Shown: piece by piece, positions 1,744 to 50,272 of the stretch | How positions within the stretch are numbered: position 1 is the stretch's first letter | How the letters are laid out: every line of letters starts with the position of its first letter | The notes under the pieces: generated by a model | Told to the model about the DNA's origin: nothing | Databases searched by the model: none | Seen by the model: only the letters and a program-made list of their open reading frames with translations | Translations under genes and position numbers: made by a program | From: a virus | Virus record (IMG/VR): IMGVR_UViG_3300013004_000041 | Location: 17,061 to 81,060 of that record | Reading direction: 5' to 3' (one strand) | DNA length: 64,000 bases

Positions 1744-1744
1744 T

Positions 1745-31834: not shown

Positions 31835-32848
31835 TTAAGAATTAAAAATGCTTTGATCTATCCAAGTTTTTGGAGTTAGATCATTTACAATTTCCACTGG
31901 CAAATAAAAATTAAATTCTTGTGGGCCACGGCTTCTTACAAATTCAATCATTCTAGTTAATGTTGTATCTAGTGGAGTTGAAGGATTATAATCTAAAAGC
32001 ATCCTTGCTTTATCTGCTGAACAGTTAGCAAACCTTACTTCCTTTGGTCTATCTGGAAGATAGATTGGATCTAAGTCAAATTCTAATAAGTTTGCTATTC
32101 TAGATGCCAATTCATTAATTGTTATAAAGTTTTGATCTGGTCCAAGATTTACTACTTCTCCATCTGCAACATCTGTTTCCACTATTTTTGCAATAGGATC
32201 TACAACATCCTGAATGTCTGAAAAACATCTCATCTGTGAACCATTACCGTATATGATTGGCTGTCTTCCTTGAAGCATTCTATTTATCATAATACCCGCA
32301 ACATTTCTAAAAGGGTCTGTATAGACCTGTCCAGGGCCTATGATGTTGTGGGGTACAGTTATAGTAAAACTAATGCCGTGAACCTCTGAAAGGACCCTCA
32401 GAGACTGTTCAAAGGCTACTTTAGCGACTCCATAAGGATCCTGTGGTTTTGGAGTCATATTTTCCGTAAATGGCAAAGAGTCCTGGGTTCCGTATCTAGC
32501 CATACTGGAGGTAAATATAAACTTTTTTACATTAGACTGTATTGCACATTTTAGTACATTCATAGATATTCCAAAGGTGTTATCAGTAATTGTCTTGGGA
32601 GAAAATATAGACAAACCCTCATGTGGTGTACATGCTGCGTGAATTACTATATCTATATCAGCAAAATCTTCTGCTGTAAGATCATTGCAGTCTTTTTCAA
32701 TAAACTTAATATTTCCTGGAACATTGTCTTTGTACCCCCCAATAAAATTATCAACACCGATAACCTTATGCTTTATAGAAAGTCTATTTGCTATGTTACT
32801 ACCAACTAACCCAGCAACTCCAGTTATTAAAATATTACTCATAGCCAT
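31835..32848 (-). CDS. NAD-dependent nucleotide-sugar epimerase/dehydratase
   Basis: TGVAGLVGS Rossmann motif, TSS, and YGVAK (YxxxK). Confidence 0.9.
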   Translation of the reverse strand: MAMSNILITGVAGLVGSNIANRLSIKHKVIGVDNFIGGYKDNVPGNIKFIEKDCNDLTAEDFADIDIVIHAACTPHEGLSIFSPKTITDNTFGISMNVLKCAIQSNVKKFIFTSSMARYGTQDSLPFTENMTPKPQDPYGVAKVAFEQSLRVLSEVHGISFTITVPHNIIGPGQVYTDPFRNVAGIMINRMLQGRQPIIYGNGSQMRCFSDIQDVVDPIAKIVETDVADGEVVNLGPDQNFITINELASRIANLLEFDLDPIYLPDRPKEVRFANCSADKARMLLDYNPSTPLDTTLTRMIEFVRSRGPQEFNFYLPVEIVNDLTPKTWIDQSIFNS

Positions 32849-33983
32849 TACCTAAAAAATAATCAAAACTATTTTTTGCTAACTGCTCATGCCTTTTGCC
32901 ATAACCAATATTTGAAAAAATAATATCTGATAACTGCTCTAATATATTTTTTTCAAAATCTGTAATATCTTTAGACATGTTTAAAATATTTATAAAGTCT
33001 AACTCTATATCTGATAAATAATAACTGCTCCAATTTTTATCATTTCCTTCAAAGAAATCTTTATCAATTTGTAGATACTTTATAACTTTATTCAATTTAT
33101 CATATTGCTTGGTTTTTATATAAATAGCAGCAATTCTTAAATACAAAAACATTTTTTGATATTCGCTAATATCTGTATTCATTAAAGAATCATAAACTGT
33201 TTTTGTTTGTTCTGGGTTAAATAATGTATAGGCTAAACTAACCAAATATTGATCAGGGATTTCAACATTAACTGAAGATTCTACGTCTTCTATAAAAGCG
33301 CTAAGTTCTTTATATATTAAGTTAAAATTATCCTTGTCATCTTTTTCATAATATGAAAGAGCAAGGGACATTAGGCCAGATAACATTATTTGATTATTTC
33401 TGTATCTTTTAATCTTGCCAACATAATTTAAAAATGAATTTATATATAATGTTTCTCTATTTTCAAATCTTTCATAATCTCCTGGCATATCTCTAACTTC
33501 TACATCTAAAAAAGTTCTTGTCATTTCTTCTGGGAAATACCCATATTTTTTAATCTCTGGCCTATATCCGAACCAAAAGCATCCCTGTCTTTTGTGAATT
33601 CTAAATAATTTTTTAACAACATTTCCATCTGCCAAACCTTCAGATGACATTAAGTTACAAACTAAAATTTCTTTATCATCATTATGATCAATTACTTTTG
33701 CTTTCCAGTCTTTTGTAATCATGTGCTGATCTATGTCTAAATTAATACAATAATCATATTCTAAAGGAATTAAAGAAAGTGCTGTATTTTTTGCATGTGT
33801 TTCATCCCATGGATTAAATGCTGCATTTATTACGTTTATGCCGAAAGACTTTGCGATTTCTATAGTTTTATCTGTGGATCCAGTATCAAGATATAAAATA
33901 TAGTCTGCATCTTTTATGCCCTCATACCATCCAGCAATATTAGATTCTTCGTTTTTACCAACACCATAAGCAGCAATTTTCAT
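32835..33983 (-). CDS. family 2-like glycosyltransferase with helical C-terminus
   Basis: MKIAAY..KNEE, LDTGSTDKT, LDID (DxD); start moved to ATG 33983, coupled to the upstream stop. Confidence 0.8.
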   Translation of the reverse strand: MKIAAYGVGKNEESNIAGWYEGIKDADYILYLDTGSTDKTIEIAKSFGINVINAAFNPWDETHAKNTALSLIPLEYDYCINLDIDQHMITKDWKAKVIDHNDDKEILVCNLMSSEGLADGNVVKKLFRIHKRQGCFWFGYRPEIKKYGYFPEEMTRTFLDVEVRDMPGDYERFENRETLYINSFLNYVGKIKRYRNNQIMLSGLMSLALSYYEKDDKDNFNLIYKELSAFIEDVESSVNVEIPDQYLVSLAYTLFNPEQTKTVYDSLMNTDISEYQKMFLYLRIAAIYIKTKQYDKLNKVIKYLQIDKDFFEGNDKNWSSYYLSDIELDFINILNMSKDITDFEKNILEQLSDIIFSNIGYGKRHEQLAKNSFDYFLGNGYE

Positions 33984-34108
33984 TATGGCTTTATCCTTTT
34001 TGCCCCGCATCTAGTACATGTTTGATAGGTTCTCATTGTATATGGGCATGTTACTTCATCCTTAGATGTTTTATGACCTTTAATATTACACAATATTTTT
34101 TTAATCAT
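33983..34108 (-). CDS. small Zn-ribbon protein (41 aa)
   Basis: Not in ORF track: MIKKILCNIKGHK...CPY...CTRCG; overlaps both neighbours. Confidence 0.6.
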   Translation of the reverse strand: MIKKILCNIKGHKTSKDEVTCPYTMRTYQTCTRCGAKRIKP

Positions 34109-34298
34109 TTACTTCCTTAAATGAAATTGCCCTATTCGGACAATGAGATGCAGCAAGTTCAACCTTATCTTTTAATTCATTAGGAACTGAATATTTCCAA
34201 GTTTTTCTTTCACTATCTACAAGTTGAAATATTTCTGGAGCATCAAAAACACATTGTCCCCACGACTGGCATGCTTTTCCAATCTTAATCTCAATCAT
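34101..34298 (-). CDS. single-cluster (3Fe-4S type) ferredoxin
   Basis: CQSWGQC...APEIF...CPNRAI motif of actinobacterial-type ferredoxins; start at ATG 34298 after GGAG. Confidence 0.8.
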   Translation of the reverse strand: MIEIKIGKACQSWGQCVFDAPEIFQLVDSERKTWKYSVPNELKDKVELAASHCPNRAISFKEVND

Positions 34299-34608
34299 TT
34301 TTAACATCTCCGTAAAACTCAATTTCTTTTAGTGCGCTTATTAACTCATACTTTGCGTCGCCATCAAAGTTGTCAAAGTCTGTTTCTTCAATATCCTTTA
34401 TTAAAACATCTATTCTTTTTTTAACATTTTGATATTGTGCATCATTAACTTTTGACTCCTTATTTAAAAAATAAAGTCTATTCCATAATGTATTTCTAAA
34501 ATAATCTTTATCTTTCTTTAGTTCTGCAATTGTTAGTCCAGTATCTATAGAATACTTTTTAAAAACAATTAATAAAAAAATAAGCGCAACTAAAAGAACA
34601 TAAGTCAT
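34291..34608 (-). CDS. hypothetical membrane-anchored protein
   Basis: N-terminal hydrophobic helix, 105 aa. Confidence 0.55.
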   Translation of the reverse strand: MTYVLLVALIFLLIVFKKYSIDTGLTIAELKKDKDYFRNTLWNRLYFLNKESKVNDAQYQNVKKRIDVLIKDIEETDFDNFDGDAKYELISALKEIEFYGDVKND

Positions 34609-34609
34609 A

Positions 34610-35272
34610 TTACACCAGTGGAATCCAGTGTTGTTCCCATTCCTTTGGAATAAAGCGTAATGGAATTACGTCGTATGCCATTGTAATTCTTGGACCATCC
34701 CAGTCCCAATCTCCCATAGCATGTGGATGCCCTGTTTCAGAAAGAATTGCACGATTATTCTTATTGTGATTTTCTATTTCATTTTCAAATACACGATAAT
34801 GAGTAATAGATGGTTCAGCCTTTACACAATAATAACCGTGGAAGTACGGAGCACCATCTCCTCCATGTTCATGCCAGTCTAATTTTCCAATGTGGTTATA
34901 GTTTACGTTAAACCATCCTTGAACCATAAACTGCTCTTGAGTAAAATCTAATTCATAATAATCACAAGCATCCTTAGTCATATCACGAACTGCACGGAAA
35001 AGAGTATGAATATTAGGATCGTACATTTGAAAAACATTATACTTATTCCAGTTCATAGTAGTAATGCTTCCAGAATTATCCCACGGAGTATTATCATTAA
35101 GTTTTTGCTTAACAACCTCTCCTCTTTCAATTCTCTTATACTGATCTAAAAGAAATACTTCTAAATCTTCTAGATTATTGATGTCAATTTGTCTCTCAAA
35201 AAACTTATGTTCTTTGGTAGATTTACTTGTACTAGGCTGTGTTGCATCGCCATACTCTGATTGATTTTTCAT
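34610..35272 (-). CDS. putative 2OG-Fe(II) oxygenase
   Basis: WFNVN..WHEH..HGYY..HPH..RITMAYD pattern of a DSBH oxygenase. Confidence 0.65.
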   Translation of the reverse strand: MKNQSEYGDATQPSTSKSTKEHKFFERQIDINNLEDLEVFLLDQYKRIERGEVVKQKLNDNTPWDNSGSITTMNWNKYNVFQMYDPNIHTLFRAVRDMTKDACDYYELDFTQEQFMVQGWFNVNYNHIGKLDWHEHGGDGAPYFHGYYCVKAEPSITHYRVFENEIENHNKNNRAILSETGHPHAMGDWDWDGPRITMAYDVIPLRFIPKEWEQHWIPLV

Positions 35273-35280
35273 TTTTTATC

Positions 35281-36042
35281 CTATCTATATTTTTTTCTCA
35301 CCCAACGGTGCTTTTTGTAGAACCCATAAAGATAATTTCTTTTTCTTTCTACGTCCCAGATTCCTTGATTTTGTAAACTATGATCTATCTTTTTTTCCCA
35401 ATTAGCACGTTTAATTGGAATAAACTGAATAATAGGTGTTCCCTTTTTAATTGTACCTTCAAAATCTTTTCTTAAAAAGAATGTAACTACATTTCCACTA
35501 AACCATCTGTCTGAATCTTGAACTGCAGTCATAGTAAAGAATGGAAGGTCATATCTATTAGTTGGATGAGTAATCATTAAAGACCATCCATCTGGTAATT
35601 TGCATCCCCATCTCATGTCCCATAAAAAGTGTATAGGATAGCATCCTGATGGTACTGGGATCTCTAAATGGCCACGCATTTCGATTGGTCTTGGCTCGTC
35701 ATCTCCCCAAGTAACTTCTGGCTTATTTGGATCATCTGTTTTTTTAACATGAACATCACATGCAAGTGGTAACTGATATCCCATAGTTAGGGCATCAAAA
35801 AATGGCATACAGTGCTTAATGCTAATTGCAGCAGAGTCTGCTCCTTTATTCCAAGTGACACTAAGATCGTCTATATTGTCATGTAATTGGTATAAGGGTC
35901 TATCCTTCCACCAGTCTGGTAAATTGTCAATTGCTGCTACTGGTTCTGGTGTAAACTGATAAGCAGTTGAAGCCCAGAACTCTGCCGTAAGATTTTCCAT
36001 TTCTGGAACATCTTTATACATATCCTCTAACTTATCTCCCAT
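35281..36042 (-). CDS. DUF6065-like protein
   Basis: KHCMPFFDALTMGY, GWSLMITHP and IKKGTPIIQFIP motifs. Confidence 0.5.
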   Translation of the reverse strand: MGDKLEDMYKDVPEMENLTAEFWASTAYQFTPEPVAAIDNLPDWWKDRPLYQLHDNIDDLSVTWNKGADSAAISIKHCMPFFDALTMGYQLPLACDVHVKKTDDPNKPEVTWGDDEPRPIEMRGHLEIPVPSGCYPIHFLWDMRWGCKLPDGWSLMITHPTNRYDLPFFTMTAVQDSDRWFSGNVVTFFLRKDFEGTIKKGTPIIQFIPIKRANWEKKIDHSLQNQGIWDVERKRNYLYGFYKKHRWVRKKYR

Positions 36043-36755
36043 TACTTAAACACCTTCTTTTCCCACATAAAATTTTTATAAGATCCGCCAAACTTAGCCC
36101 TTAGTTTATACGAAATTGCTTTAAGAGCATGCATATCTGGCTTTTCTAATATTTCAGATCTAAACTCTTCTCTTTTATAAGGAATACATTGTACTAGGGG
36201 AGTGCCCTTTTCAATCGTACCCTTAAATCCTCTTTTTACTAAAAGAGAGAATGGTCCATCTGAGATGTACATATCGGTATCAATTATAGCAGGAACAATA
36301 ACAAAAGGCAAATCATCATGAAATGATGGATGGATAAACATAGTACTATATCCTTTTTCAGTTCCAATTACCCACATAGGGTGTACTCTAAAAATATCAT
36401 CTACATATAAATTTTTATCGTATGTCCATCCATCTATCTGCTCTCTGCTGTGCTTACCAATTACATCATTATGTATTGGATGTACTTGAACTTCAAGGCT
36501 TTCTCCAGTTGCATCAACATAAACATCACATGGAAACTTTAACATGTAACCCGTAACCATTTGATCTAAAATTCCTGGACACTTTTTAATTGTTTCATTA
36601 TATTGTCCACCAATTAATTTTCTTTCTCCCCCAACAAAAGGCTCTGTCTTTCTCCACCAGTGAGGTATATTCTTAGACATTGGTTCTGGATGTGGCGCAT
36701 ATTCAAAAGTAAACTCATCTTTTGGAATAAATTTAATATTTTTTTGTTTTGACAT
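36042..36755 (-). CDS. DUF6065-like protein (tandem paralog)
   Basis: KKCPGILD..TGY, GYSTMFIHP and IEKGTPLVQCIP motifs, matching the adjacent gene. Confidence 0.5.
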   Translation of the reverse strand: MSKQKNIKFIPKDEFTFEYAPHPEPMSKNIPHWWRKTEPFVGGERKLIGGQYNETIKKCPGILDQMVTGYMLKFPCDVYVDATGESLEVQVHPIHNDVIGKHSREQIDGWTYDKNLYVDDIFRVHPMWVIGTEKGYSTMFIHPSFHDDLPFVIVPAIIDTDMYISDGPFSLLVKRGFKGTIEKGTPLVQCIPYKREEFRSEILEKPDMHALKAISYKLRAKFGGSYKNFMWEKKVFK

Positions 36756-36757
36756 TA

Positions 36758-37534
36758 CTATTCCTCTACTCTCATGTACATAAAAATCTCATCATGTTTA
36801 ATATAAGGAGATTTGCTTCTTACATTGACATACAATTGTACAGGAACCTGAACACTTTTGGTATCAACTGGACAATCTATTGTTATTTCTTCAACCTTTA
36901 TTCTTAATCTTTTTTCTATTTCTTCATCTGTAAAAAATGTCACCTTAGAAGAATTTTTTGGAAGCCATCGAATATTCCATAAATACCAGTAAGGGTACAG
37001 AGCATTCGTATCGTTTTTGCTATATAAGTTATCTATCTCTTCTTTTGTTAATTTTATATCTTTAATTTTTTCATCATCAACCTCTAGGTGCTGATAGAGA
37101 GTTCTACTTAAAGGCATTGGCATTGGAAGGCTAAAATCTTGTCCAGTTAAAGTATAATTATAATTAAAACTATTCTTTAAAAAAAACACATCAGCAGAAA
37201 CACGAAGACGATATAGGTTATCTTCAACTTTTTCTGGCTTATAATTTGTTTCATGAACCCATCTATTTTCAGGAACCCAATAAGATGCTCCATCATCATA
37301 TTCTTTATGCCAATCACTTGGAGAATATTGTGGTTGTAGTTCTCCAGAATCTAGTTTTGGCTGAATTTTTTTTTCATATTCTTTAGTCTCCATGGCAACC
37401 TGAGAACTAATTAAAAATGGAGTAGACCTTGTTTTTGACAAAGTTTCTTTATTCATTGCAACTGTATCATCAGACCACAAGAACTCTTGTTCGCTATAAT
37501 CTGGATAATAGTTGTCGTTATATTTACGAGACAC
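36758..37534 (-). CDS. hypothetical protein
   Basis: 258-aa ORF starting 3 bp after the PASTA-Hint gene. Confidence 0.55.
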   Translation of the reverse strand: MSRKYNDNYYPDYSEQEFLWSDDTVAMNKETLSKTRSTPFLISSQVAMETKEYEKKIQPKLDSGELQPQYSPSDWHKEYDDGASYWVPENRWVHETNYKPEKVEDNLYRLRVSADVFFLKNSFNYNYTLTGQDFSLPMPMPLSRTLYQHLEVDDEKIKDIKLTKEEIDNLYSKNDTNALYPYWYLWNIRWLPKNSSKVTFFTDEEIEKRLRIKVEEITIDCPVDTKSVQVPVQLYVNVRSKSPYIKHDEIFMYMRVEE

Positions 37535-37536
37535 TA

Positions 37537-38583
37537 TTAGTTATCTTTCGTATCGAAAACCAACATTGTTTCTGTAAAGAAGTTGTCGTACGGCTCACAG
37601 TTAATAGAGATAACATTGTCAATATAGTTTAATTCTGTTACGCTTGTAACTGCAATCCAGTCTTGATTAGAATAATCATAAACTTCATAAGATGTATCTA
37701 TATCTCTTGAAAGAACAAACTTATAAACATCATCTTTTCTTGCAAAGATCCAGTGTGTTGGAGAGAAAAGGCTTCCGTTGATGTTGTAAATCTTATCAAC
37801 AGTCTTTTCTTGTATCGCAACCACCTGAGTTTCAACAACTTCGATCCCGTCGAATGTTGAAGATGTCCATACTGCTGGATCAAATTGAGAAGTTCCTACT
37901 TCTGCGATATTTAGTCCTAGAAGTGTATCTCCAACTTGTAAAGAACCTGCAGTTACAATTCCTCCTGGAGTTCTAACACCAGTTGATGGTGATAATGAGA
38001 AGTAAGATCCGAAACCACCGTATCCTGCTGGAGCATGGCTAAAACCACCATAACCATGACCAAAGTTATGGTAGAAGCCACCATATGAGTGTGAGAAGTT
38101 GTGGTAGAACCCACCATATGAGTGTGAGAAGTTGTGGTAGAACCCACCATATGAGTGTGAGAAGTTGTGGTAGAAGCCATGGTAGAAACCTGCGTAATGG
38201 CTAAATGAGTGGTAGAAGCCATGGTAGAAACCAGCATAGTGGCTGAAACCAGCATAGTGGCTGAAGCCTGCGTAGTGACTGAAACCAGCATAGTGGCTGA
38301 AACCAGCATAGTGGCTGAAGCCTGCGTAGTGGCTGAAACCTGGATAAACATACTGATAGTAATTAATAGCAACGCTGGTACCAATATTAACTACGGTACC
38401 AGCGGTCACTGATTGTGTATTTATCTTTTGATCTAAGTTAGCATCAGAGGTAGTAGTGCTTGTCTCTGTATATGTTAACCCCTTTAATGTAAGTTCTGCC
38501 TGATACTGACTTCTTGTCATACCAGATAGGCTAGGTACAGAAACCTTTCTTATACCTCTATCACCAGTTCTTTGTAGTGCCAT
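37537..38583 (-). CDS. PASTA domain + Tyr/Phe/His/Gly repeat core + C-terminal Hint-like domain protein
   Basis: VPSLSGMT..TQS.TAGTVV..GTSV (PASTA); YAGFSH and YGGFYHNFSHS repeats; SLSPSTGV..LQVGD..SPTH..YDNFF (Hint blocks). Confidence 0.75.
   Translation of the reverse strand: MALQRTGDRGIRKVSVPSLSGMTRSQYQAELTLKGLTYTETSTTTSDANLDQKINTQSVTAGTVVNIGTSVAINYYQYVYPGFSHYAGFSHYAGFSHYAGFSHYAGFSHYAGFSHYAGFYHGFYHSFSHYAGFYHGFYHNFSHSYGGFYHNFSHSYGGFYHNFSHSYGGFYHNFGHGYGGFSHAPAGYGGFGSYFSLSPSTGVRTPGGIVTAGSLQVGDTLLGLNIAEVGTSQFDPAVWTSSTFDGIEVVETQVVAIQEKTVDKIYNINGSLFSPTHWIFARKDDVYKFVLSRDIDTSYEVYDYSNQDWIAVTSVTELNYIDNVISINCEPYDNFFTETMLVFDTKDN
38002..38343 (-). repeat. coding tandem repeats (18-bp and 33-bp units)
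   Basis: Six 18-bp GFSH units at ~38239-38343 and three near-identical 33-bp units at ~38068-38170. Confidence 0.9.
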
Positions 38584-38627
38584 TTAGATCATTCTCCTAT
38601 CAATATTTTATTTAATTTTACTGCTTT

Positions 38628-40445: not shown

Positions 40446-40511
40446 ATTTTATCTCTCCTTATAAGGGTTCTGCCCCTATTTTTTTTTCTACTGCTTATTA
40501 TAACATCAATT

Positions 40512-40967: not shown

Positions 40968-40996
40968 TTACTGCTCCTTCTTACCGTTTTATTTTA

Positions 40997-42628: not shown

Positions 42629-42645
42629 TTGTTATCTCCTTTTTA

Positions 42646-43092
42646 TTACGCCTTAAGTCCAATTCGTGCATAACGAACTGTGACTGGACGGATTGTTGGG
42701 TCTGGAGTTACTGTAATTGAAACAGTATTTCCTACCCTAGAGACGCTAATGGTGCCAATATTCCCATCGTTGTCTATTGTTCCATATTCAGAGACGCTTA
42801 CATTTGTACCGTCTACTAAAATGGTCAATTCTGTTGCATAGAATTTATTGTCTCCTGCTGTTACTTTAGCAATCGACACAAGGTACTTAACCATACGCCA
42901 TTCAGTGGCATCGAAGTTATCGATAACTGTTGGGTTCTCAATACCGTTGATTGTATTTTCATTATTACCGTGTGAACCAAGATCAAGCGACTGACCAGCA
43001 GCGCTGTCAATTAAATCTTCGTAGTCTTGTTGACTTGGACGATCTCCAGATTCAAACTTTGTTTTTAGTGTAGCAAGTGATATTTTTGCCAT
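42646..43092 (-). CDS. structural protein, C-terminus similar to that of 40997..42628
   Basis: LKTKFESGDRP..DLIDS N-terminus; VSEYG motif. Confidence 0.55.
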   Translation of the reverse strand: MAKISLATLKTKFESGDRPSQQDYEDLIDSAAGQSLDLGSHGNNENTINGIENPTVIDNFDATEWRMVKYLVSIAKVTAGDNKFYATELTILVDGTNVSVSEYGTIDNDGNIGTISVSRVGNTVSITVTPDPTIRPVTVRYARIGLKA

Positions 43093-43122
43093 GGCTATAT
43101 TATAACTCCCTTTTTATTTTTT

Positions 43123-43368
43123 TCAGAGGATGTAGTTATTGTAGCCAACAACTGCAACTCCAATACCAGCAGGATTTTCTTTAGAAAACCCAAAAACACC
43201 AACATTTATAAATTGCACCCTGAAAGGTAAAATATCTTCTATTGTAGATTTATATTTTATATCATTTATTCTAATTGATCTTTTATCGAGTTCTGTTATT
43301 TGTGCATGTGCTAAACGATGAGTGGTTCTATATATTTGCTTAGATAGTTTTTGTGCGTTTGTTTGCAT
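43123..43368 (-). CDS. hypothetical protein
   Basis: 81-aa ORF coupled to the upstream gene. Confidence 0.55.
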   Translation of the reverse strand: MQTNAQKLSKQIYRTTHRLAHAQITELDKRSIRINDIKYKSTIEDILPFRVQFINVGVFGFSKENPAGIGVAVVGYNNYIL

Positions 43369-43757
43369 TATTCCGTTACATCTTCAATGATAACCATAGA
43401 TCCCTTGGCTACCGTCCAAACTCTTGTGCCAGAATCTAATTCTGTGAGTTGGATATCAAAGATGTCTCCTGTTTCTAAAATTTCTGATTGTGCTGCTGTC
43501 AAAGAAACAGTAAAACTACCCTCTACATCTTGAAACTCAATTGGTTCAGGAGTTAAAGATAAAACAACTTCGTCTGTTGATGGACGATAAACATCCATGG
43601 CAACTTCCCAATCTTCAAATAATAATGGATTTCTTTCGTCATCTGTTACATAAACTCTAAATGCTGCAGAGTCTCCTCTAACTACCGTCCAACGAATTTC
43701 TGGTGGTGTTGAACCTAAAGAATAACTATCTGTTGTTTGATTTCTAAAGGTGGCCAT
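43368..43757 (-). CDS. BppU-N-like baseplate/fibre adaptor
   Basis: VVRGDS..FDIQL..TVAKG pattern; paralogous to 52533..52964 and 54513..54911. Confidence 0.5.
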   Translation of the reverse strand: MATFRNQTTDSYSLGSTPPEIRWTVVRGDSAAFRVYVTDDERNPLLFEDWEVAMDVYRPSTDEVVLSLTPEPIEFQDVEGSFTVSLTAAQSEILETGDIFDIQLTELDSGTRVWTVAKGSMVIIEDVTE

Positions 43758-43774
43758 ATCTTGATTATATCATA

Positions 43775-44290
43775 TTAGGCTAGTCCAGCCTTCAATGCTC
43801 CCCATGTTCCATTGCCTTTTGCTTGAATAACAATTACACCAGTTGTAGGGTTTGAAACAGCAACAATTCCAATGGCCCCACCAACGACGGTATCTGTAAG
43901 AGAACCAGAAGAATCTACATATAATAATTCTCCTACAGAAAAACCACTAGTATTAACATTTGTTAAAACGCCAGCAACTACCACTTCTCCACTTGCACCA
44001 TCTGTCAATGATGTTTTTGTCAACCCAAGAAATGGATAATTATCTGATAGTGATGATGTAAATAATTCTATTTGAGTTTTATTATTAATGTGACCTACAG
44101 CATAGACTGGCTTTGCTGCGCCTATTGTTGATCCTGAATTATTTATTACTTTTACCCGCACATTTGACGCATCAAGAGAAGCAATAGCATCGTCAACATC
44201 GTCTGCTAATTTTTTAATATCATTATGCACATTAACAGAGTCAGTTGCCTGTGGATAAGTTAGACCATAGTTATTAGTTATTTCAGCCAT
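43775..44290 (-). CDS. putative structural protein
   Basis: TNNYGLTYP..DIKKLA..VD N-terminus and GEVVVAG motif. Confidence 0.5.
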   Translation of the reverse strand: MAEITNNYGLTYPQATDSVNVHNDIKKLADDVDDAIASLDASNVRVKVINNSGSTIGAAKPVYAVGHINNKTQIELFTSSLSDNYPFLGLTKTSLTDGASGEVVVAGVLTNVNTSGFSVGELLYVDSSGSLTDTVVGGAIGIVAVSNPTTGVIVIQAKGNGTWGALKAGLA

Positions 44291-44312
44291 AGACAAATAT
44301 TATATCATTGTT

Positions 44313-44342
44313 TGACTATATGTCCCAAATTGTGTTATACTA
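44313..44342 (+). promoter_or_regulatory. housekeeping-sigma promoter for the lysozyme-like gene
   Basis: TTGACT-N18-TATACT with extended TG. Confidence 0.6.
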
Positions 44343-44397
44343 AGAAGTAACATGGCACCCTTTAACAAGGTGTCATTCCGTTTCTAAGGAGGAAACT

Positions 44398-44961
44398 ATG
44401 ATGAACTTTATGAATAATAACAGGCAAATCATTGGCACACTCAGCATATTAGCAATGTTTGGCGTTTGGTCAAATGCCGCTAATGCTTCTGAAAACCGAT
44501 TAGACGATAGTAAAAATATCGTGCTGCAAGAAACAATAGAGGCCACGAAAGTGGCCAAAAGTGTTTCTGAGGCTAAAGAAGATCAGTTAGAAAAATATAA
44601 AAATGCTGTAAATCTATCTGACAAAGAACTTAAAAATCTACTATATTTAGTAGGTTTTGAAGGTCAAAAACTAAGAGAGGCTTGGGCTATTGCTAAGAAA
44701 GAATCTGGCGGTAGACCAATGGCGTTAAACCTTAGTAAAAGAACTGGAGATAGTTCTTATGGCTTATTTCAAATAAATATGATTGGCGACCTTGGTCCTG
44801 AGCGTAGAGATAAGTTTAAATTAGAATCAAACTACGAGTTATTTAATCCAGTATTAAATGCTCAAATTGCATTTCACATGTCAAACGGCGGTGAAAATTG
44901 GATTGCCTGGAAGGGCATCACTCCAAGAACAAAAAGTCTAATGTCTAATTTTCCACATTAG
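44398..44961 (+). CDS. signal-anchored lysozyme-like/lytic transglycosylase
   Basis: N-terminal hydrophobic segment; AIAKKESGG, SYGLFQIN, LFNPVLNA and W.AW motifs; RBS AAGGAGG. Confidence 0.8.
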   Translation: MMNFMNNNRQIIGTLSILAMFGVWSNAANASENRLDDSKNIVLQETIEATKVAKSVSEAKEDQLEKYKNAVNLSDKELKNLLYLVGFEGQKLREAWAIAKKESGGRPMALNLSKRTGDSSYGLFQINMIGDLGPERRDKFKLESNYELFNPVLNAQIAFHMSNGGENWIAWKGITPRTKSLMSNFPH

Positions 44962-45661
44962 TATTTTCCCATAAGTGTTTTTCTTTTTGATATCTTTCTT
45001 CAAATTCTAAAACACCACGGTAATCACAGCATGGGCATATTGGTCTTCCGTCGGAATAATCTGGCTGAGACCAATATCCCATTCTGGCCCTAAATCTAAA
45101 GTCTGCCTCATGTCCATGCTTATCAAAACCAGCCTTTCCGCCTTCTGTAAAAAACCAATGGTCTGGCTCCGCAAATTGCATAAACAATAATGTTACATAG
45201 TCATCTTCGTTATCGCTTGGGTATGGAGTTCTCCAATGAAGCATATCATTTCCAGAAAATAACACACAACTATTAGGCTCTTCTTCAAACTCTTGATCTT
45301 CAACAACAAGTTTCCAATCTACAGTTTTCTCAATACAAATATCTAAAGAATATTGACAAGCAGACTGATCCCAATGCTTCCACAATTGTGGCTTAATTCC
45401 ATTTTGCATTTGGTACCTTGCTGTATGAAAGCCTGCACGTTTTAAGTTTGGATTATTAAATGTTTTTCTTGCTATATCTAAGATTTCTTTTTCTGTTTCT
45501 TCATCAAAATGAATTTCTGTAAGCCATCTACCAGCAACGGTATGATAGAAATGATTTCCGTCTGGTCCCATATTTTTATCTAATATTTGCTTTTTAACAT
45601 TGCCAAACATATGCGGTGGCAAAAAATTTTTAATAGCGATTGGGCTAGTTATTGATGACAT
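44945..45661 (-). CDS. putative 2OG-Fe(II) oxygenase
   Basis: LWKHWD (HxD)...HWR; paralog of the adjacent gene; C-terminal CPCC. Confidence 0.7.
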   Translation of the reverse strand: MSSITSPIAIKNFLPPHMFGNVKKQILDKNMGPDGNHFYHTVAGRWLTEIHFDEETEKEILDIARKTFNNPNLKRAGFHTARYQMQNGIKPQLWKHWDQSACQYSLDICIEKTVDWKLVVEDQEFEEEPNSCVLFSGNDMLHWRTPYPSDNEDDYVTLLFMQFAEPDHWFFTEGGKAGFDKHGHEADFRFRARMGYWSQPDYSDGRPICPCCDYRGVLEFEERYQKEKHLWENTNVEN

Positions 45662-46205
45662 TATTACTCCTATTTTGTTCTCTTATTTTTTCAACATACC
45701 CTGGGCCTTCTGTAAAAAACCAATGGTCTGGCTCTACATAATGAAAAAACACTACACCAATTTTATCATAATTATTAACTTTAGTATCTCTCCAATGCTC
45801 GTACTTTTCACCCATAAACATAACTGCCTCATTTGGCTCTGCCAAAAATTCAACACCATCTACAAATATTCCCCATGGCTCATTTTGATACAGAACTAGG
45901 TCTAGGGTATATGTACATGCATTGGCATCCTTGTGTCTATGTAAACTAATAGTTTCTGATGAATATTCAGCAAAAAGAGAGTATGAAGGAAGGGCTGTTT
46001 CTGTTCCAAAAAACTCCCTTACTTTTGGCAATAATATATTACTATATTCTTTTAGTATTGACTCTGACCCATCACCAAGTAGTTTTCTGCCAAACTCGTC
46101 TGTTCCTATTCTAGACAATAGTTCATGATTTTTAAAATATTCACAGATTCTATTAAAGTCTTCTGGGCTAAGAGCATTTTTTATAATTCCTAACTCTTTA
46201 TTCAT
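45645..46205 (-). CDS. putative 2OG-Fe(II) oxygenase
   Basis: LHRHKD..C.YT...EHWR...FFHY. Confidence 0.7.
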   Translation of the reverse strand: MNKELGIIKNALSPEDFNRICEYFKNHELLSRIGTDEFGRKLLGDGSESILKEYSNILLPKVREFFGTETALPSYSLFAEYSSETISLHRHKDANACTYTLDLVLYQNEPWGIFVDGVEFLAEPNEAVMFMGEKYEHWRDTKVNNYDKIGVVFFHYVEPDHWFFTEGPGYVEKIREQNRSNNVINN

Positions 46206-46983
46206 TTATATACCTCTTCATATTTCCAGAAAAATAATGATGTATAAAGACATCATCTTTATTTGTTGTATCAAAGTCTGTACCTAAACATATATCTTTA
46301 TCTTCAAAATACTCATATTTTATATTGCTTTGACGAATATTATAATATGCAGCATATTGAGAAACATTCCAGAAGAAGATGTGATCTGTATTTGAATTAA
46401 GGCTACTAAAAATTTTATCTGTAAAATTATTAATTGTATCTATCCACAGTAGTTCAAAGTCTTTTAAGATTTTATTTATTTCTGTTTTACTTAATATCAT
46501 TTGTCCATCATTGATTCCTGGATTTATATTAAGACTCTTTATAAAATTTTGAACAACGCCGTCGTTAAACTCTTTTTTAAAATAACACATGTCCTTATTG
46601 TATTTATTTAATAATTCTATTGGACTTTTATAAAAAATAGTATCTGTATCTAAAAATAAAACTCTATCATATTCATGCTGTTTGATAAAATTTAAAATAT
46701 TTATCCATCTATGATGAAGCCAAATGTTCCATGGATGAACTGGAACTTTATTGCTCCATCTTTTAAAAACCTCATCATTGTTAAAATCAATAAGAATAAC
46801 TTTATTATCTATAAAAAACTGGTCTATAATTTTTGTTTTAGATGATATGTAAACAAAAATATCAATATCTGAAAACTTTCTTATTGAAGATATGGAATGT
46901 TTCAATTGTTTATAGTTATGATGAACTGATGGATTGTCTTCAAAATATAAAGAATATAAAACTGCAGTTTTTAGGCCATCCAT
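46198..46983 (-). CDS. GT-A fold glycosyltransferase
   Basis: VLFLDTDTIF (DxD), INDG and C-terminal IHHY. Confidence 0.7.
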   Translation of the reverse strand: MDGLKTAVLYSLYFEDNPSVHHNYKQLKHSISSIRKFSDIDIFVYISSKTKIIDQFFIDNKVILIDFNNDEVFKRWSNKVPVHPWNIWLHHRWINILNFIKQHEYDRVLFLDTDTIFYKSPIELLNKYNKDMCYFKKEFNDGVVQNFIKSLNINPGINDGQMILSKTEINKILKDFELLWIDTINNFTDKIFSSLNSNTDHIFFWNVSQYAAYYNIRQSNIKYEYFEDKDICLGTDFDTTNKDDVFIHHYFSGNMKRYINE

Positions 46984-47537
46984 TGAACTATCACATACCT
47001 TAATCCATCTGTAACTGGATGAACCTCGTGGTTATATACAAAGTTTGATGGGAATATAAGAAGTTGATTTTTTTGAGCCTTAAATCTTAGGCCAAATCGT
47101 TTAAACTCTACATCCCCTCCTTCATATTCATCATTTAGGTAATAAGTCAAAGATATTCTTCTTGTAAAAAATGGATGATCGTCTATATGGTCATGGAACT
47201 TTTGTTCTTTACCATACCTCAAAAGTTGTGGGTGTTCAAATTTTTCTATTTTTGCTGCATAATAAGCAAGGTATTGATCAAGACATGGTCTAAGTTCTTT
47301 GTGAAATTCTTTAGAAAAGTCTGCAAGTAATCCAGTTGCATCATTCATGTGATGTGGTAGCATTATCAGATCTGTATCTCTTGCTTTATAATTTGTACCA
47401 GATTTATTTTCATCCTGATTAACTAAGACTTCTGCTGCTTGCCAAGACATGCCCTGATCTTCTATTTTATTAATATACTCCATAGAGTTTTGAAATATAT
47501 TATCAAAAACAACAATTCCTGGTGCTAATTCTTTCAT
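46971..47537 (-). CDS. prolyl 4-hydroxylase-like 2OG-Fe(II) oxygenase
   Basis: LLRY..HID..YLNDEYEGG..HEVHPVTDGLRY; start at ATG 47537 just after the upstream stop. Confidence 0.85.
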   Translation of the reverse strand: MKELAPGIVVFDNIFQNSMEYINKIEDQGMSWQAAEVLVNQDENKSGTNYKARDTDLIMLPHHMNDATGLLADFSKEFHKELRPCLDQYLAYYAAKIEKFEHPQLLRYGKEQKFHDHIDDHPFFTRRISLTYYLNDEYEGGDVEFKRFGLRFKAQKNQLLIFPSNFVYNHEVHPVTDGLRYVIVQWMA

Positions 47538-47539
47538 AC

Positions 47540-47770
47540 TTACCACTTTCCTAATGGGCACGTGGCCCCTTCTAGTTTTACTTTAAGGTTCATTAAACAT
47601 CCACACTTCTTGCATTGCTTTGTAGCATTGATTAGTTCTGGACACAATAAGCATATATTATATCTAGAGTATGCGACCTCATCTGTTGCCCTTGGTGCTT
47701 GAGGATTTAATAAATCCCAAGGCCTTGTTGATCCTAAATTTTGCTTATATCTCTCCCATGGAGTTGTCAT
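47540..47770 (-). CDS. small Cys-rich protein (DUF6171-like)
   Basis: R..IC..CP..CKKCGC.M.LK..L..A.CPLGKW; paralog at 57262..57462. Confidence 0.7.
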   Translation of the reverse strand: MTTPWERYKQNLGSTRPWDLLNPQAPRATDEVAYSRYNICLLCPELINATKQCKKCGCLMNLKVKLEGATCPLGKW

Positions 47771-47772
47771 TT

Positions 47773-48138
47773 TTATTCTTTCTTAGTTCTTATAGAATGA
47801 CCAAAATGTAACTTTGGATTGCTTGCAAGCATTGATCCAAGTTGTGATGTAGTTGTTAACTGATTTATTTCATTATTATTAATATCAATAAACTTAATAA
47901 TTGAACAATCATCATTTACGCATTCTATTTTAGATGAATTCTGTAATATTTCTATAAACCAGGAATGCGTAGAAAACTGTTTAGCAGCCTCAATTTTTCC
48001 ATCATCATTATAAATGCAAACAATTGTTCCAGGAACGTGATACTCATCACCAACATTTAATTTTTCAGTTAGCAATGCCTCGTCTTCATCATTAAAAAAT
48101 ATATCATTATCAGTTAACATAGTAATCCATTCTATCAT
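47773..48138 (-). CDS. hypothetical protein
   Basis: 121-aa ORF directly after the PPVT repeat gene. Confidence 0.55.
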   Translation of the reverse strand: MIEWITMLTDNDIFFNDEDEALLTEKLNVGDEYHVPGTIVCIYNDDGKIEAAKQFSTHSWFIEILQNSSKIECVNDDCSIIKFIDINNNEINQLTTTSQLGSMLASNPKLHFGHSIRTKKE

Positions 48139-48165
48139 TAAACTTAAAGTTTTGCAAGTTATATT

Positions 48166-49635
48166 TTATAAACATCCGCAACCTGATGATGGGCTTGTAC
48201 TTGGACCACCGCATAGTCCAGATCCATATCCTCCATCACAAACAGCATTTGCTGTATCAGCAGCCTCTGCTGCGCTGCTAAATGAATAAGATTGGCATCC
48301 ACCTAAGTTACCACAGCAGCACCAATAATATGTTTGAGTACTTGATGGTGTTACAGGTGGAGTAACTGGTGGAGTCACAGGTGGAGTAACAGGTGGCGTT
48401 ACTGGTGGAGTCACAGGTGGAGTAACAGGTGGAGTCACAGGTGGAGTAACAGGTGGAGTCACAGGTGGAGTAACAGGTGGCGTTACTGGTGGAGTAACAG
48501 GTGGCGTTACTGGTGGAGTAACAGGTGGCGTTACTGGTGGTGTAACAGGTGCTGGTGTACAACTTGGTGTTCCTGCTGCTGCAGAAGAACCACAAACAAA
48601 GCCGCTTGGAAGATATCCATAAGCATTTTCTAGTCCATTTGATAAGTCGTTACATGATTGATTATATGGGCCGAAAGGTCCTTGTGGTGAATTCGTAGTT
48701 GAACAGAATCCGTAGTAATTAGTGTATGTGTTTGGTGGAGTAACAGGTGGAGTCACGGGTGGGGTTACTGGTGGTGTCACAGGTGGAGTAACAGGTGGAT
48801 TTGCTCCAGTACAAGAAGTTATAACGTTAGTAGAAACTCCTCCGTTTAATGTTGCGCTTATAGAGAAACAGAATGATTCAGCATTTGACTCTGCTTGAGT
48901 AGCATTTGATGCTGTGGTTGTTCCAATAGTGTTATCGTCGCAACAGAAATAATATGTTTGCGTTACTGGTGTTACAGGTGGAGTCACAGGTGGAGTAACA
49001 GGTGGCGTTACTGGTGGAGTAACAGGTGCTAGAGTACAGTCTGGAATTCCACTTGCTGGTGTAGTTCCACAGGCCCAACCAATTGGTGGATATCCGTATG
49101 CGTTTTCCCAAGTTTCAAGAATTGATGAGCATGGGCCATACACTGTTGACTGTGTTATTGGTTCTAGTGTTCCTTGATCACACCATCCATAGTAGTAAGT
49201 GGTGACTGGCGTTACTGGTGGAGTAACTGGAGGCGTCACAGGTGGAGTCACAGGTGGAGTCACAGGTGGTGTGACAGGTGGTGTGACAGGTGGTGTGACA
49301 GGTGGAGTAACAGGTGGAGTAACAGGTGGCGTTACTGGTGGAGTAACAGGTGGAGTCACAGGTGGAGTAACAGGTGGCGTTACTGGTGGAGTAACATAAT
49401 TATAATATTCAAAATCTAAAGTTGCTTCATATTCACGAAGTTCGTTTGTATCAGATCTTTTTTTTGCTTTTCCATTGTTAGAAGAATTTGCACCTGTTGT
49501 TGTTGAAGATTCTGATCCTAATTTAAAGCCTGCCTCTGTAATAGCATTCCTTGCATCATTTAAAGTTAGTCCCTCAATATCAGGAACTTTTCCCATTCCT
49601 TTTGAAGATGCCCATTTGCCAAGGAATCCAAGCAT
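48166..49635 (-). CDS. PASTA-like domain + PPVT repeat + Cys-rich module protein
   Basis: VPDIEGLTLNDARNAITEAGF (PASTA-like); four (PPVT)n tracts alternating with four Cys-rich modules. Confidence 0.75.
   Translation of the reverse strand: MLGFLGKWASSKGMGKVPDIEGLTLNDARNAITEAGFKLGSESSTTTGANSSNNGKAKKRSDTNELREYEATLDFEYYNYVTPPVTPPVTPPVTPPVTPPVTPPVTPPVTPPVTPPVTPPVTPPVTPPVTPPVTPPVTPPVTPVTTYYYGWCDQGTLEPITQSTVYGPCSSILETWENAYGYPPIGWACGTTPASGIPDCTLAPVTPPVTPPVTPPVTPPVTPVTQTYYFCCDDNTIGTTTASNATQAESNAESFCFSISATLNGGVSTNVITSCTGANPPVTPPVTPPVTPPVTPPVTPPNTYTNYYGFCSTTNSPQGPFGPYNQSCNDLSNGLENAYGYLPSGFVCGSSAAAGTPSCTPAPVTPPVTPPVTPPVTPPVTPPVTPPVTPPVTPPVTPPVTPPVTPPVTPPVTPPVTPPVTPPVTPPVTPSSTQTYYWCCCGNLGGCQSYSFSSAAEAADTANAVCDGGYGSGLCGGPSTSPSSGCGCL
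48348..49396 (-). repeat. four tracts of 12-bp coding repeats (Pro-Pro-Val-Thr)
   Basis: GGTGGAGT(A/C)ACA-type units at ~48348-48550, 48733-48798, 48961-49028 and 49201-49396. Confidence 0.9.
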
Positions 49636-49642
49636 CTGGTAC

Positions 49643-50272
49643 CTACGCTGTCAAATCGCCAATAAGGACCCAGGTATCTGTACCAGTTTTGATAAGAGTT
49701 GCACCAGAATACCTCGCAGCAATTTTCTTGTTAGAATTTTTACTATTAATCGTTACACCAACAGCACCAGCAAACGTAACATTACCAGTATTTAGTCTTA
49801 CTACGTCTAATCTCTGTCCATTTGCAAACGGTACAGAAGAGTTAAGCGGAACAGTTACAGTTCTATCAATTGTAGAATCAATTAAAATTGTTTGTCCTGC
49901 ATCTGCAAGACCTAAAGTATAATCAGCAGTTTTTGTATTAAGAGTTGCTGTATCTAACATTCCTACCCATGATGTACCGTTATAAATTTGAACTTGATTT
50001 ATATCAGTGCCACCATTTGTTTGCTCAACAAAACATACTGTTCCCTTAATTGGAGATAGAATTACCATATCTCTTGCCATTGGGTTTTGAAATCTATTTA
50101 CTCCACCCTTAGCACGGATAACATCATTTACGGTTACTATTGATCCAAAAGTGTGTGCGGCATTCCATGTGTATGCAACATTTGTGTTAGCAGTTCCAGC
50201 AACGGCATACCAAGTGTCTGATACTTGATCATACATGTATGCTACTTTACTGGTTGAACTAACTGTTGACAT
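49643..50272 (-). CDS. fibre-associated protein with C-terminal domain shared with 38628..40445
   Basis: GQRLDV..G.VT...GVT.N..SGATLIK...WVLIGDL. Confidence 0.7.
   Translation of the reverse strand: MSTVSSTSKVAYMYDQVSDTWYAVAGTANTNVAYTWNAAHTFGSIVTVNDVIRAKGGVNRFQNPMARDMVILSPIKGTVCFVEQTNGGTDINQVQIYNGTSWVGMLDTATLNTKTADYTLGLADAGQTILIDSTIDRTVTVPLNSSVPFANGQRLDVVRLNTGNVTFAGAVGVTINSKNSNKKIAARYSGATLIKTGTDTWVLIGDLTA

Follow-up and report, generated by a model that had tools for sequence, protein, structure and literature searches.

The question raised by this locus is what a phage does with low-complexity repeat proteins that are encoded between a fiber gene and a packed row of enzyme genes, and whether those enzymes act on the repeats. 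The arrangement occurs twice, as cassettes A and B, between positions 31,835 and 50,272 of a 64,000-nucleotide stretch of viral DNA (hereafter, the window), which corresponds to bases 17061-81060 of the 81,060-bp record IMGVR_UViG_3300013004_000041; the record is judged to be 75% complete. An earlier note had regarded each cassette as an exchangeable unit of a substrate and its tailoring enzymes. We describe here two hypervariable fiber-appendage slots, and we consider the chances evenly balanced that their repeat proteins are tailored by the neighboring cassette enzymes. The two cassettes differ in this respect. As a substrate-plus-tailoring module, cassette A is well supported by comparisons of its predicted proteins, where genes for a prolyl 4-hydroxylase (P4H) and glycosyltransferases (GTs) accompany Pro/Thr repeats in both slots, whereas the same description suits cassette B weakly, and linkage and a nucleotide module are live alternatives there.

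As shown in Table 1, the architecture described in the earlier note, in which a gene with a shared tip domain is followed by a PASTA-headed low-complexity protein and then by closely packed genes, is present twice in the window. The C-terminal domain shared by the two fiber genes was recovered by BLASTP, which pairs residues 97-207 of the 209-aa protein with residues 489-602 in the 605-aa fiber (38% over 117 aa, E 3e-14). Both proteins match the C-terminus of phrog_8780, a 'minor tail protein' (E 1.4e-15 for the 209-aa and 1.9e-16 for the 605-aa protein), and the 209-aa protein matches phrog_21510 and phrog_18179 at their C-termini as well. A total of 254 phage records match the 209-aa protein, 216 of which are Gordonia phages and usually carry the annotation 'minor tail protein'; it is 79-81% identical in the relatives L005 and L007. 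The tip domain is a widespread fiber-tip module. The Mtd_N match of the 605-aa fiber has E 3.4e-14, and this fiber also matches tail-fiber PHROGs (phrog_454, E 6.4e-42). The gap from the tip-domain gene to the PASTA-headed gene is 7 nt in cassette A and 44 nt in cassette B, and the tight coupling noted for the genes is seen in intergenic distances of −32 to +90 nt.

The PASTA-like heads were likewise recovered. PF03793 (gathering cut-off 23.2 bits) matches the 81-kb record in two places, which are the two appendage proteins, at 33.3 bits for B and 23.9 bits for A in a six-frame scan; by hmmscan, protein B reaches 29.8 bits over model positions 1-60 of 64. Proteins A and B have no significant mutual similarity (best E 1.2), and they are linked indirectly, as the head of the slot-A protein of L007 is similar to the PASTA region of protein B (38% over 71 aa, E 8e-7). 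The difference in repeat chemistry between the cassettes, Pro/Thr in A and His/Tyr/Phe/Ser in B, is clear. Protein A contains 40 PPVT units in its four runs, encoded by 12-nt DNA arrays. Three Cys-bearing modules are interspersed among the runs, and the C-terminal end is rich in Cys, giving 20 Cys in all. Its relatives in L005 and L007 are 71% and 40% identical, respectively, where the Cys modules are kept and the repeats differ. The 116-aa core of protein B consists of G24, Y21, F21, H19 and S16, plus Ala, Asn and Pro, has no charged residue, and includes 19 F-x-H motifs and six GFSHYA units. Tandem DNA arrays with periods of 12, 18 and 33 nt lie behind the two repeats.

Table 1. Features of the two cassettes and their flanks, in positions of the window.
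Feature	Positions	Strand	Remarks
Short fiber protein, 209 aa	49643..50272	-	Tip domain at residues ~97-209; opens cassette A
Appendage protein A, 489 aa	48166..49635	-	Borderline PASTA head, four (PPVT)n runs, Cys modules
121-aa protein	47773..48138	-	Cassette A
Small six-Cys DUF6171-like protein	47540..47770	-	Constant slot-A companion
P4H-type 2-oxoglutarate (2OG)-Fe(II) oxygenase	46971..47561	-	PF13640 (2OG-FeII_Oxy_3), E 3.7e-16, 60.3 bits
Candidate GT-A glycosyltransferase, 261 aa	46198..46983	-	Invariant DxD
Two paralogous probable oxygenases, 186 and 238 aa	45645..46205 and 44945..45661	-	H-x-D...H
Lytic transglycosylase-like (SLT-like) gene	44398..44961	+	SLT_3, E 2.3e-15; conserved downstream flank of slot A
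Fiber, 605 aa	38628..40445	-	Mtd_N head, coiled-coil shaft, tip domain; opens cassette B
Appendage protein B, 348 aa	37537..38583	-	PASTA 14-73; repeat 80-195; predicted Hint 196-348
258-aa protein	36758..37534	-	Only with His/Tyr-type appendage proteins
Two DUF6065-like paralogs, 237 and 253 aa	35281..36755	-	Predicted dUTPase-like fold
220-aa protein, possible 2OG-FeII_Oxy_5-type oxygenase	34610..35272	-
105-aa protein	34291..34608	-	Hydrophobic N-terminus
Small single-cluster ferredoxin	34101..34322	-	Fer4_15, E 1.3e-7, 32.6 bits (cut-off 22.4)
GT2-like glycosyltransferase	32835..34010	-	Long C-terminal extension; phrog_13126, E 1.4e-31
NAD-dependent nucleotide-sugar epimerase/dehydratase	31835..32848	-	PF01370, E 5.3e-42
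Class II (B12-type) ribonucleotide reductase (RNR)	29717..31747	-	Conserved downstream flank of slot B

The C-terminal part of protein B is predicted from its conserved residues to be a non-splicing Hint domain, which is absent from the earlier note. The last 153 residues have 17 homologs at E<=1e-3, and 8 of the 19 aligned homologs (40-47% identical there) match the Hint model PF14890, with a best E of 8.1e-6; the domain in the window is too diverged to match PF14890 at E<=0.01. S196 (position 1), T201 and the block-B H277 are invariant in all 19 sequences, and the motif C-E-P-x-D-N-F-F-T, from C329, is invariant in the family. Protein B ends in ...LVFDTKDN, with neither the C-terminal His-Asn nor the extein of a splicing intein, and therefore only N-terminal cleavage or transfer would be possible for this domain. 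The profile of the full-length Hint family matched FN3 proteins only, since FN3 heads dominated it, and the single-sequence AlphaFold2 (AF2) model of protein B was uninformative (pLDDT 38.7). A Hint domain of phiCbK was considered as a parallel and rejected, as it is the terminase intein. In the Erwinia phage Alexandra, a collagen-like protein with a Hint end lies among tail and tail-fiber genes and is, by annotation only, a 'virion structural protein'. This protein, gp112 of the jumbo phage vB_EamM_Alexandra (L175, 3978-5420), carries Gly-X-Y repeats and a canonical C-terminal Hint domain, in which position 1 is Cys and the terminal His-Asn precedes a Thr; no description of it was found in the literature searched.

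The enzymes named in the earlier note stand in part. Cassette A has a firm P4H-type oxygenase and cassette B a GT2-like gene, whereas the two largest 'oxygenase-like' paralogs of cassette B have a dUTPase-like predicted fold, as described below. In the P4H family, the iron triad H125, D127 and H178 is invariant in 32 sequences. The profile of these 32 sequences matched 63 chains among the PDB sequences at E<=0.01, where the best solved relatives are the bacterial P4H 5hv0/3itq (E 2.6e-15) and P3H1 (7.6e-11), followed by 5c5t (4.4e-10) and then by PKHD hydroxylases, EGLN1 and the lysyl hydroxylase LH3. The P4H-like family is thus nearest to solved protein prolyl hydroxylases, and hydroxylation of peptidyl proline is its predicted reaction. 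The P4H-type gene is present as a single copy in the 81-kb record, and it adjoins the only Pro-rich repeat protein of that record.

In the candidate GT-A enzyme, L-x-L-D-x-D-T is invariant in 12 sequences, and a 28%-identical homolog lies in L012 beside a GT of the PF11397 family. Such PF11397 GTs are found in slot A of L012, L017, L020 and L078 (E 1.8e-21 to 4.3e-37). The 186-aa and 238-aa paralogs match phrog_2954 (E 2e-13 and 1.2e-12, respectively), and their H-x-D...H is invariant in 11 sequences; profile comparison with the P4H family is weak (E 0.0079, probability 5%), and no sequence or profile match of the paralog family to solved structures was obtained. The six-Cys protein matches phrog_13558 (E 2.8e-14) and, below the cut-off, DUF6171 (21.8 bits); its six Cys are invariant in 19 sequences, and it is found in 39 of the 88 loci described below. 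The 121-aa protein has no Pfam or PHROG match and has homologs in 4 of these loci.

Further structural genes lie around cassette A. Two collagen-repeat structural proteins are encoded upstream of it on the minus strand, at 52981-53700 and 53710-54513 (PF01391 E 2.2e-6 and 3.8e-8, respectively), the second of which also has a sub-threshold CBM_5_12 match. As collagen-like repeats are classic substrates of prolyl hydroxylases, these proteins are alternative targets for the single P4H of the record. A 174-aa glycine-rich protein (50467-50991, minus strand) is encoded two genes upstream of the 209-aa tip protein; it matches Gly_rich_2 at 23 bits, just under the cut-off, and only its first 40 residues are conserved in L005. 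Between the cassettes and upstream of the portal and capsid genes, a gene at 43775-44296 (minus strand) matches Phage_cement_2 at 24.3 bits (cut-off 24). The fibers could therefore be head fibers, as the gene order fits either head or tail.

The Hint-type protein has 201 relatives in a public viral collection. Eighty of them were analyzed together with loci from further searches, which gave 88 loci mapped by tblastn and open reading frame (ORF) calling. The conserved order starts with the short tip-domain protein, slot A and the SLT-like gene on the opposite strand, which is kept at the flank of slot A in 60 of the 88 loci, and continues with five small structural genes, two fibers, the appendage protein, slot B and the RNR. 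Both slots are hypervariable across the 88 loci. The appendage proteins have PASTA or FN3 heads, with FN3 in 15 of the 19 members of the Hint-family alignment, and end in a Hint domain or in Cys-rich modules; their repeats fall into the classes PPVT/TPTP, Thr-rich, PFFPP, FGFTP/GAFGAF, NPGF, PVII-type and G-F-x-H-Y. When the whole region and both appendage proteins were compared with isolated phages at the nucleotide and protein levels, no match was obtained, where low-complexity filtering probably hid any.

In four clusters (L012; L020; L027/L028; L032/L033), one ORF of up to 845 aa encodes both the tip domain and a repeat rich in Pro/Thr or in Thr; Cys modules of the same kind are present, and the PASTA head is absent. 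These fusions indicate that the repeats are physically tied to the fibers. The missing PASTA head in the fusions suggests that this head is a docking piece when the tip and the repeat are separate proteins. The cassettes had also been regarded as exchangeable, and they are indeed swapped as units among close relatives. When the same 30 rows were compared on two trees, the last 105 residues of the fiber tracked the head type of the next protein, with 2 changes on the tip tree, as against 6 when the RNR tree was used; the exchanged unit therefore begins within the fiber gene.

Several loci show further arrangements. In L007 (18454-20661), which belongs to a Phe-Pro lineage, the second fiber is followed by a protein with FN3, (PFFPP)n and a Cys-rich end without Hint, and then by a 263-aa protein without a family match and a second six-Cys DUF6171-like gene. 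In G002, the genome of L008, an array of P4H-like paralogs interleaved with DUF6065-type genes occupies 176-6746 and 115627-117448 and accounts for 11 of the 13 matches in the genome; because it spans the ends of the linear record, a circularly permuted genome with one very long slot B is suggested. In L177 (G001 contig 104000-117625), a second accessory island lies far from the fibers at positions 1668-8866, and it holds a ferredoxin-like gene, a distant PF11397-like GT (28%, E 1.5e-8), WhiB and a DUF6065-like gene, together with the gene for a 402-aa protein in which a dinucleotide-binding motif was recognized by eye at the N-terminus.

A survey of related genomes for co-variation of repeat type with enzyme set, which the earlier note had named as a check, gave a positive result. 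Repeat proteins were clustered at 80% identity, and peak residue density was determined for 70 cassettes with proteins of >=250 aa, a low-entropy window, and either a closed slot or >=3 kb of downstream sequence. All 15 clusters with a P4H-like gene have a peak Pro density of >=0.25 in a 40-aa window, whereas none of the 23 Pro-poor clusters has such a gene (Fisher p 2.4e-7; Mann-Whitney p 2e-7; median peak Pro 0.45 versus 0.125). With a looser low-complexity mask, which covered 81 of 104 cassettes, 10 of 13 clusters whose repeats have Thr>=20% also have a GT of the PF11397-like or cassette-A type, as against 1 of 39 others. Thr-rich, Pro-poor repeats (L026-L029) have the GT and no P4H. In the NPGF lineage, a P4H-like gene at 25-30% identity appears in the maps, and the lineage was dropped from both tables by the entropy filter. 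In the Phe-Pro lineage L007/L008, slot A holds the six-Cys gene only, without a P4H; its genome has 13 P4H-like matches, 9 of which are directly downstream of slot B, and this exception is therefore only apparent. Both associations, of P4H with Pro and of GT with Thr, hold in both slots, which indicates that linkage alone is no explanation for them.

For cassette B, the co-variation was counted in 33 rows with a complete RNR. A five-gene set, made up of the genes for the 258-aa, 220-aa and 105-aa proteins and the DUF6065-like pair, is present in all 19 rows with His/Tyr repeats and in none of the 14 others; the 258-aa gene, the 105-aa gene and a second DUF6065-like copy are lacking from every one of these 14. 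At least 5 changes of the His/Tyr class were counted on the RNR tree of the same rows, and the five-gene set changes along with it in all five independent pairs. Few of these genes have a recognizable family. The 258-aa protein has no Pfam, PHROG or solved-structure match, and none of its 26 homolog clusters is annotated; the 105-aa protein has no family match in Pfam/PHROG scans. The 220-aa protein has no Pfam match, no solved relative by sequence and no profile relation to the P4H family. Its neighbors in the ESM Atlas (0.96-0.97) carry PF13759 in 57-79% of members, and it is possibly a 2OG-FeII_Oxy_5-type oxygenase, which we take as a lead only. The GT2-like gene matches Glycos_transf_2 at 19.4 bits, below the cut-off.

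The DUF6065-like paralogs match phrog_7084 (E 6.8e-40 and 4.6e-30). An AF2 model of the 237-aa protein (pLDDT 85.9, pTM 0.81) was compared with solved structures using VIA-align, where the top 22 chains all belong to the dUTPase/dCTP deaminase superfamily (Z 10.8-6.1) and the following chains have Z of 5.2 and 3.6. The best chain, 3h6x_A, aligns over 120 residues with a root-mean-square deviation of 3.2; with Foldseek, the best E is 6.6e-4. The pair is thus predicted by modeling to have a dUTPase-like fold, and an assignment as cupin or 2OG oxygenases was ruled out by the fold comparison. An invariant D159-x-D161 resembles dUTPase motif III by eye only. At the sequence level, no match to any solved dUTPase was obtained. 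The paralogs do not match PF19541 of Pfam even at E 5, the hhalign comparison with canonical DUF6065 is weak (E 0.012, probability 3.5%), and only 12-23% of the members of their ESM Atlas neighbors carry PF19541; the label 'DUF6065-like' is therefore used here and no more.

In the tailoring reading, each slot would supply a fiber gene with the tip domain, followed by a head, a probably disordered repeat and an end module, the last formed by Cys-rich knobs in A and by the predicted non-splicing Hint domain in B. In cassette A, the P4H-type oxygenase would hydroxylate the prolines of (PPVT)n in the host cytoplasm, and the neighboring glycosyltransferase(s) would put sugars on hydroxyproline and/or threonine. 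The repeat would then become a stiff, protease-resistant, extensin-/mucin-like stalk that shows the Cys-rich knobs at the fiber tip. In cassette B, the Hint domain would undergo an N-to-O acyl shift at Ser196 and excise itself, which would leave the uncharged aromatic/His repeat as a free or transferred C-terminal end of the fiber-bound appendage; the DUF6065-like genes may instead belong with the adjacent RNR. Carried on the virion, such appendages might serve in adsorption or shielding.

A number of observations weigh against this reading. The co-variation statistics take no account of shared ancestry. The pre-set Pro test, for Pro >=25% of the loosely masked region, was not significant (5/4/13/30, p 0.25), and the peak-density test was chosen after it had failed; we attribute the failure to the loose mask, which diluted Pro with Ser/Thr-rich FN3 sequence. 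Six Pro-dense clusters have no P4H-like gene in their own slot. The candidate GT-A enzyme has no significant family match, the weak ones being PF03407 (E 0.055) and GT8-type chains (E 0.35-0.5), and Pfam scans found no PF11397 gene in the window. The PASTA head of protein A is borderline, as hmmscan gives 21 bits, below the cut-off, over model positions 2-34, which is half of the model. In L034, a PASTA-type protein follows a tip domain of the FN3-associated clade. As for cassette B, GT2, epimerase and ferredoxin genes occur in only part of the His/Tyr loci, and the sign test gives p 0.0625, which is the floor for five pairs. Moreover, cassette B lies between two conserved flanks, and block exchange alone would therefore give the same pattern.

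The genomic neighbors of the DUF6065-like genes add to these points and bear on a first alternative, that cassette B is largely a nucleotide- or DNA-modification module belonging with the class II RNR, including the DUF6065-like pair and perhaps the 220-aa protein, the ferredoxin, GT2 and epimerase genes. We regard this as a possible, if less than likely, explanation. A DUF6065-like gene is the immediate upstream neighbor of the RNR in many Phe/Gly-type loci and in G002, where DUF6065-like genes are present without a Hint protein. In the NPGF lineage, the gene remains close to an RNR-like gene and is separated from the Hint gene. Two additional copies are present in G001, one of which immediately precedes the gene for DNA polymerase III alpha, and a homolog in the halovirus HSTV-2 is located beside thymidylate synthase and DNA polymerase genes. 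Together with the dUTPase fold, these neighbors indicate that the DUF6065-like proteins may act on nucleotides. On the other side, DUF6065 or DUF6065-like genes share the slot in 33 of 37 Hint-type clusters versus none of 15 non-Hint clusters, follow the Hint gene even without a nearby RNR (L061, L076), and include a canonical DUF6065 (PF19541 E 3.6e-36) inside a P4H array in slot A of L083. The restriction of the 258-aa and 105-aa genes to His/Tyr repeats also argues against a nucleotide module, and Pfam/PHROG scans of the cassette found no thymidylate-synthase-like gene, kinase or other DNA-hypermodification hallmark. A functional coupling in which DUF6065 is always found with Hint was considered as well, and it is weakened by the Hint-less G002 and by the RNR, polymerase and thymidylate synthase neighbors. 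The role of the DUF6065-like pair may thus be either in nucleotide metabolism or in appendage processing.

A second alternative, which we consider rather unlikely, is that the cassettes are ordinary host-range islands, whose enzymes act on the host envelope or on other molecules, for example to block superinfection, and are swapped in blocks with the repeats. Slot A is bounded by the SLT-like gene and slot B by the fiber N-terminus and the RNR, and the contents are exchanged together. The pair of GT2 and epimerase genes is found in some His/Tyr loci only, and the epimerase changes place, being in slot B here and, as a homolog with 56% identity, in slot A of L012 beside P4H and GT genes. Homologs of the epimerase are common in cellular genomes of many phyla, which also makes them uninformative for host assignment. 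Furthermore, in the available text of PMC10202952, the roles usually proposed for phage GTs are DNA protection and cell-wall modification. However, linkage does not account for the pairing of the P4H with Pro-dense and never with Pro-poor repeats in the two slots, nor for that of PF11397-type GTs with Thr-rich ones, and the P4H-like family is nearest to protein prolyl hydroxylases rather than to sugar- or lipid-modifying enzymes.

The repeat proteins might also be chaperones or scaffolds of fiber assembly that are discarded, with the Hint domain for self-removal. A position directly behind the fiber gene is typical of fiber chaperones, and self-cleaving C-terminal chaperone domains exist in phage tailspikes. 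This explanation is nevertheless improbable, since four clusters fuse the repeat to the C-terminus of the fiber tip domain, the proteins are large and have adhesion-type PASTA or FN3 heads, and the Hint-ended relative in Alexandra is annotated as structural. Finally, true clusters of ribosomally synthesized and post-translationally modified peptides (RiPPs), in which multi-core repeats would be cut to small modified free peptides, such as cross-linked aromatic-His ones, are very improbable: the many near-identical short units of protein B and the nearby autoprocessing domain, ferredoxin and uncharacterized enzymes would suit them, whereas the RiPP-like organization suggested in the earlier note is a loose analogy, as the precursors are large (348-489 aa) and multidomain, have folded heads within a fiber module and are in some relatives fused to the tip domain. 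Moreover, in Pfam/PHROG scans of the cassette genes, no member of the known families of RiPP maturases, recognition elements, proteases or exporters was detected.

Among known systems, the closest logic to cassette A would be, by analogy, that of the Skp1 pathway of Dictyostelium and Toxoplasma (PhyA, Gnt1, PgtA, AgtA). There, according to the available text of PMC3515798, a cytoplasmic P4H makes hydroxyproline, which Gnt1 and further soluble transferases glycosylate. The phage group has a P4H-type enzyme, and its relatives have PF11397 GTs; the candidate GT-A enzyme has a weak, non-significant match to the Skp1 alpha-galactosyltransferase chain (E 0.35). We take PF11397 to be the family of Gnt1. 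The difference is that one proline of Skp1 is modified, as against a long tandem repeat on a phage fiber appendage as the presumed target, and that the window is without PF11397.

Extensins and algal wall proteins are hydroxyproline-rich glycoproteins, and the chlorovirus PBCV-1 has a P4H together with viral Pro-rich repeats. The likeness to these systems consists of Pro/Thr-rich tandem repeats combined with a P4H, and the solved relatives of the phage enzyme include the 'Prolyl 4-hydroxylase' 5c5t, presumably the PBCV-1 enzyme, as well as the Chlamydomonas-type 2jig and 2jij (~8e-5). In contrast to them, the present system is that of a bacteriophage, its reaction would proceed in the bacterial cytoplasm, and the repeat is bound or fused to a tip domain with Cys knobs. 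The predicted Hint domain of protein B, with Ser196 as its nucleophile and the block-B His277, resembles the C-terminal Hint domains of Hedgehog/Hog and bacterial intein-like (BIL) proteins, which undergo N-terminal cleavage. It differs in being placed on an uncharged aromatic/His repeat in a phage fiber module, with no sterol-recognition-like region evident. The 237-aa DUF6065-like model resembles dUTPases and dCTP deaminases with Z of 8-10.8 over ~110-140 residues, and the protein is ~100 residues longer.

Mycobacteriophages are reported to glycosylate their own virion proteins with phage glycosyltransferases (Freeman et al. 2023, as cited in PMC12619734), and self-glycosylation of structural proteins thus has a precedent among actinophages. 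As far as the available text of that source goes, the targets are the C-termini of capsid and tail-tube proteins, and no hydroxylase, dedicated repeat appendage or Hint domain is described. In none of the systems compared is a low-complexity repeat bound to a fiber, provided with a Hint or Cys-knob end and accompanied by a matched set of enzymes. The literature searched, supplementary tables (e.g., those of PMC10202952) aside, contained no description of such cassettes, and no mention of DUF6065 or DUF6171 was found in it.

Genes between ~25.5 and 55 kb of the window lie on the minus strand, with the SLT-like gene on the plus strand. The genes downstream of the cassettes include those for a portal, a major capsid protein, a head maturation protease and a tape measure protein of 2034 aa, which indicates a long-tailed siphovirus. 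The RNR is identified by RNR_Alpha (E 2.1e-30) and the RNR-II insertion domain (E 3.8e-15). Its identity among relatives is 83-94%, far above the conservation of its neighbors, and it sits between the fiber module and the 1241-aa, portal and capsid genes. Near-complete relatives have genomes of 100-118 kb. The head maturation protease is ~55% identical over residues 1-264 to Streptomyces phage proteases, and its matches in 192 records comprise 127 Streptomyces, 53 Vibrio and 9 Rhodococcus phages. WhiB was detected above the Pfam cut-off in all four near-complete relatives and, among 14 control genomes, only in that of Corynebacterium; the 75%-complete record of the window has a WhiB match of 14.2 bits, below the cut-off. 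According to the available text of PMC10202952, whiB is exclusive to Actinobacteriota and a marker of actinophages, and phages of aquatic Actinobacteria have recently become culturable. The presence of WhiB in the relatives thus makes an actinobacterium the most likely host. The source phage is accordingly taken as a siphovirus with a genome of ~117 kb, whose host most likely belongs to aquatic Actinobacteria, and the PASTA and FN3 modules fit such a host.

A wider reading of the same material, which we offer only tentatively, is that of a large, undescribed actinophage group with interchangeable disordered fiber 'tentacles'. Their chemistries would number six or more (Pro-Thr, Thr-rich, Phe-Pro, Phe-Gly, Asn-Pro-Gly-Phe and His-Tyr-Phe), each with a cytoplasmic enzyme set of its own. 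P4H arrays and GTs for hydroxyproline or threonine would serve some of them, further enzymes would act on the aromatic/His repeats, and the Hint domain would cap the sticky end and then release or covalently transfer it. The logic of host adhesion would then be like that of extensins, mucins, and mussel or squid-beak proteins.

For very many of the 2OG-Fe(II) oxygenases and glycosyltransferases encoded by phages and other viruses, no substrate is known. Here a substrate can be named, because the enzymes adjoin repeat proteins whose composition predicts the enzyme content. If tailoring does take place, these phages would encode the hydroxylation and glycosylation of a virion adhesin and a new use of Hint autoprocessing, and the cassettes would be a source of compact enzyme-substrate pairs with which hydroxylated or glycosylated repeat polymers could be produced. 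Exchangeable chemistries may set the host range in phages of the abundant and hard-to-culture aquatic Actinobacteria. If the fibers do carry interchangeable tentacles, orphan viral 2OG oxygenases would gain a substrate, and the group would possess a virus-encoded toolkit of post-translational modification for host adhesion.

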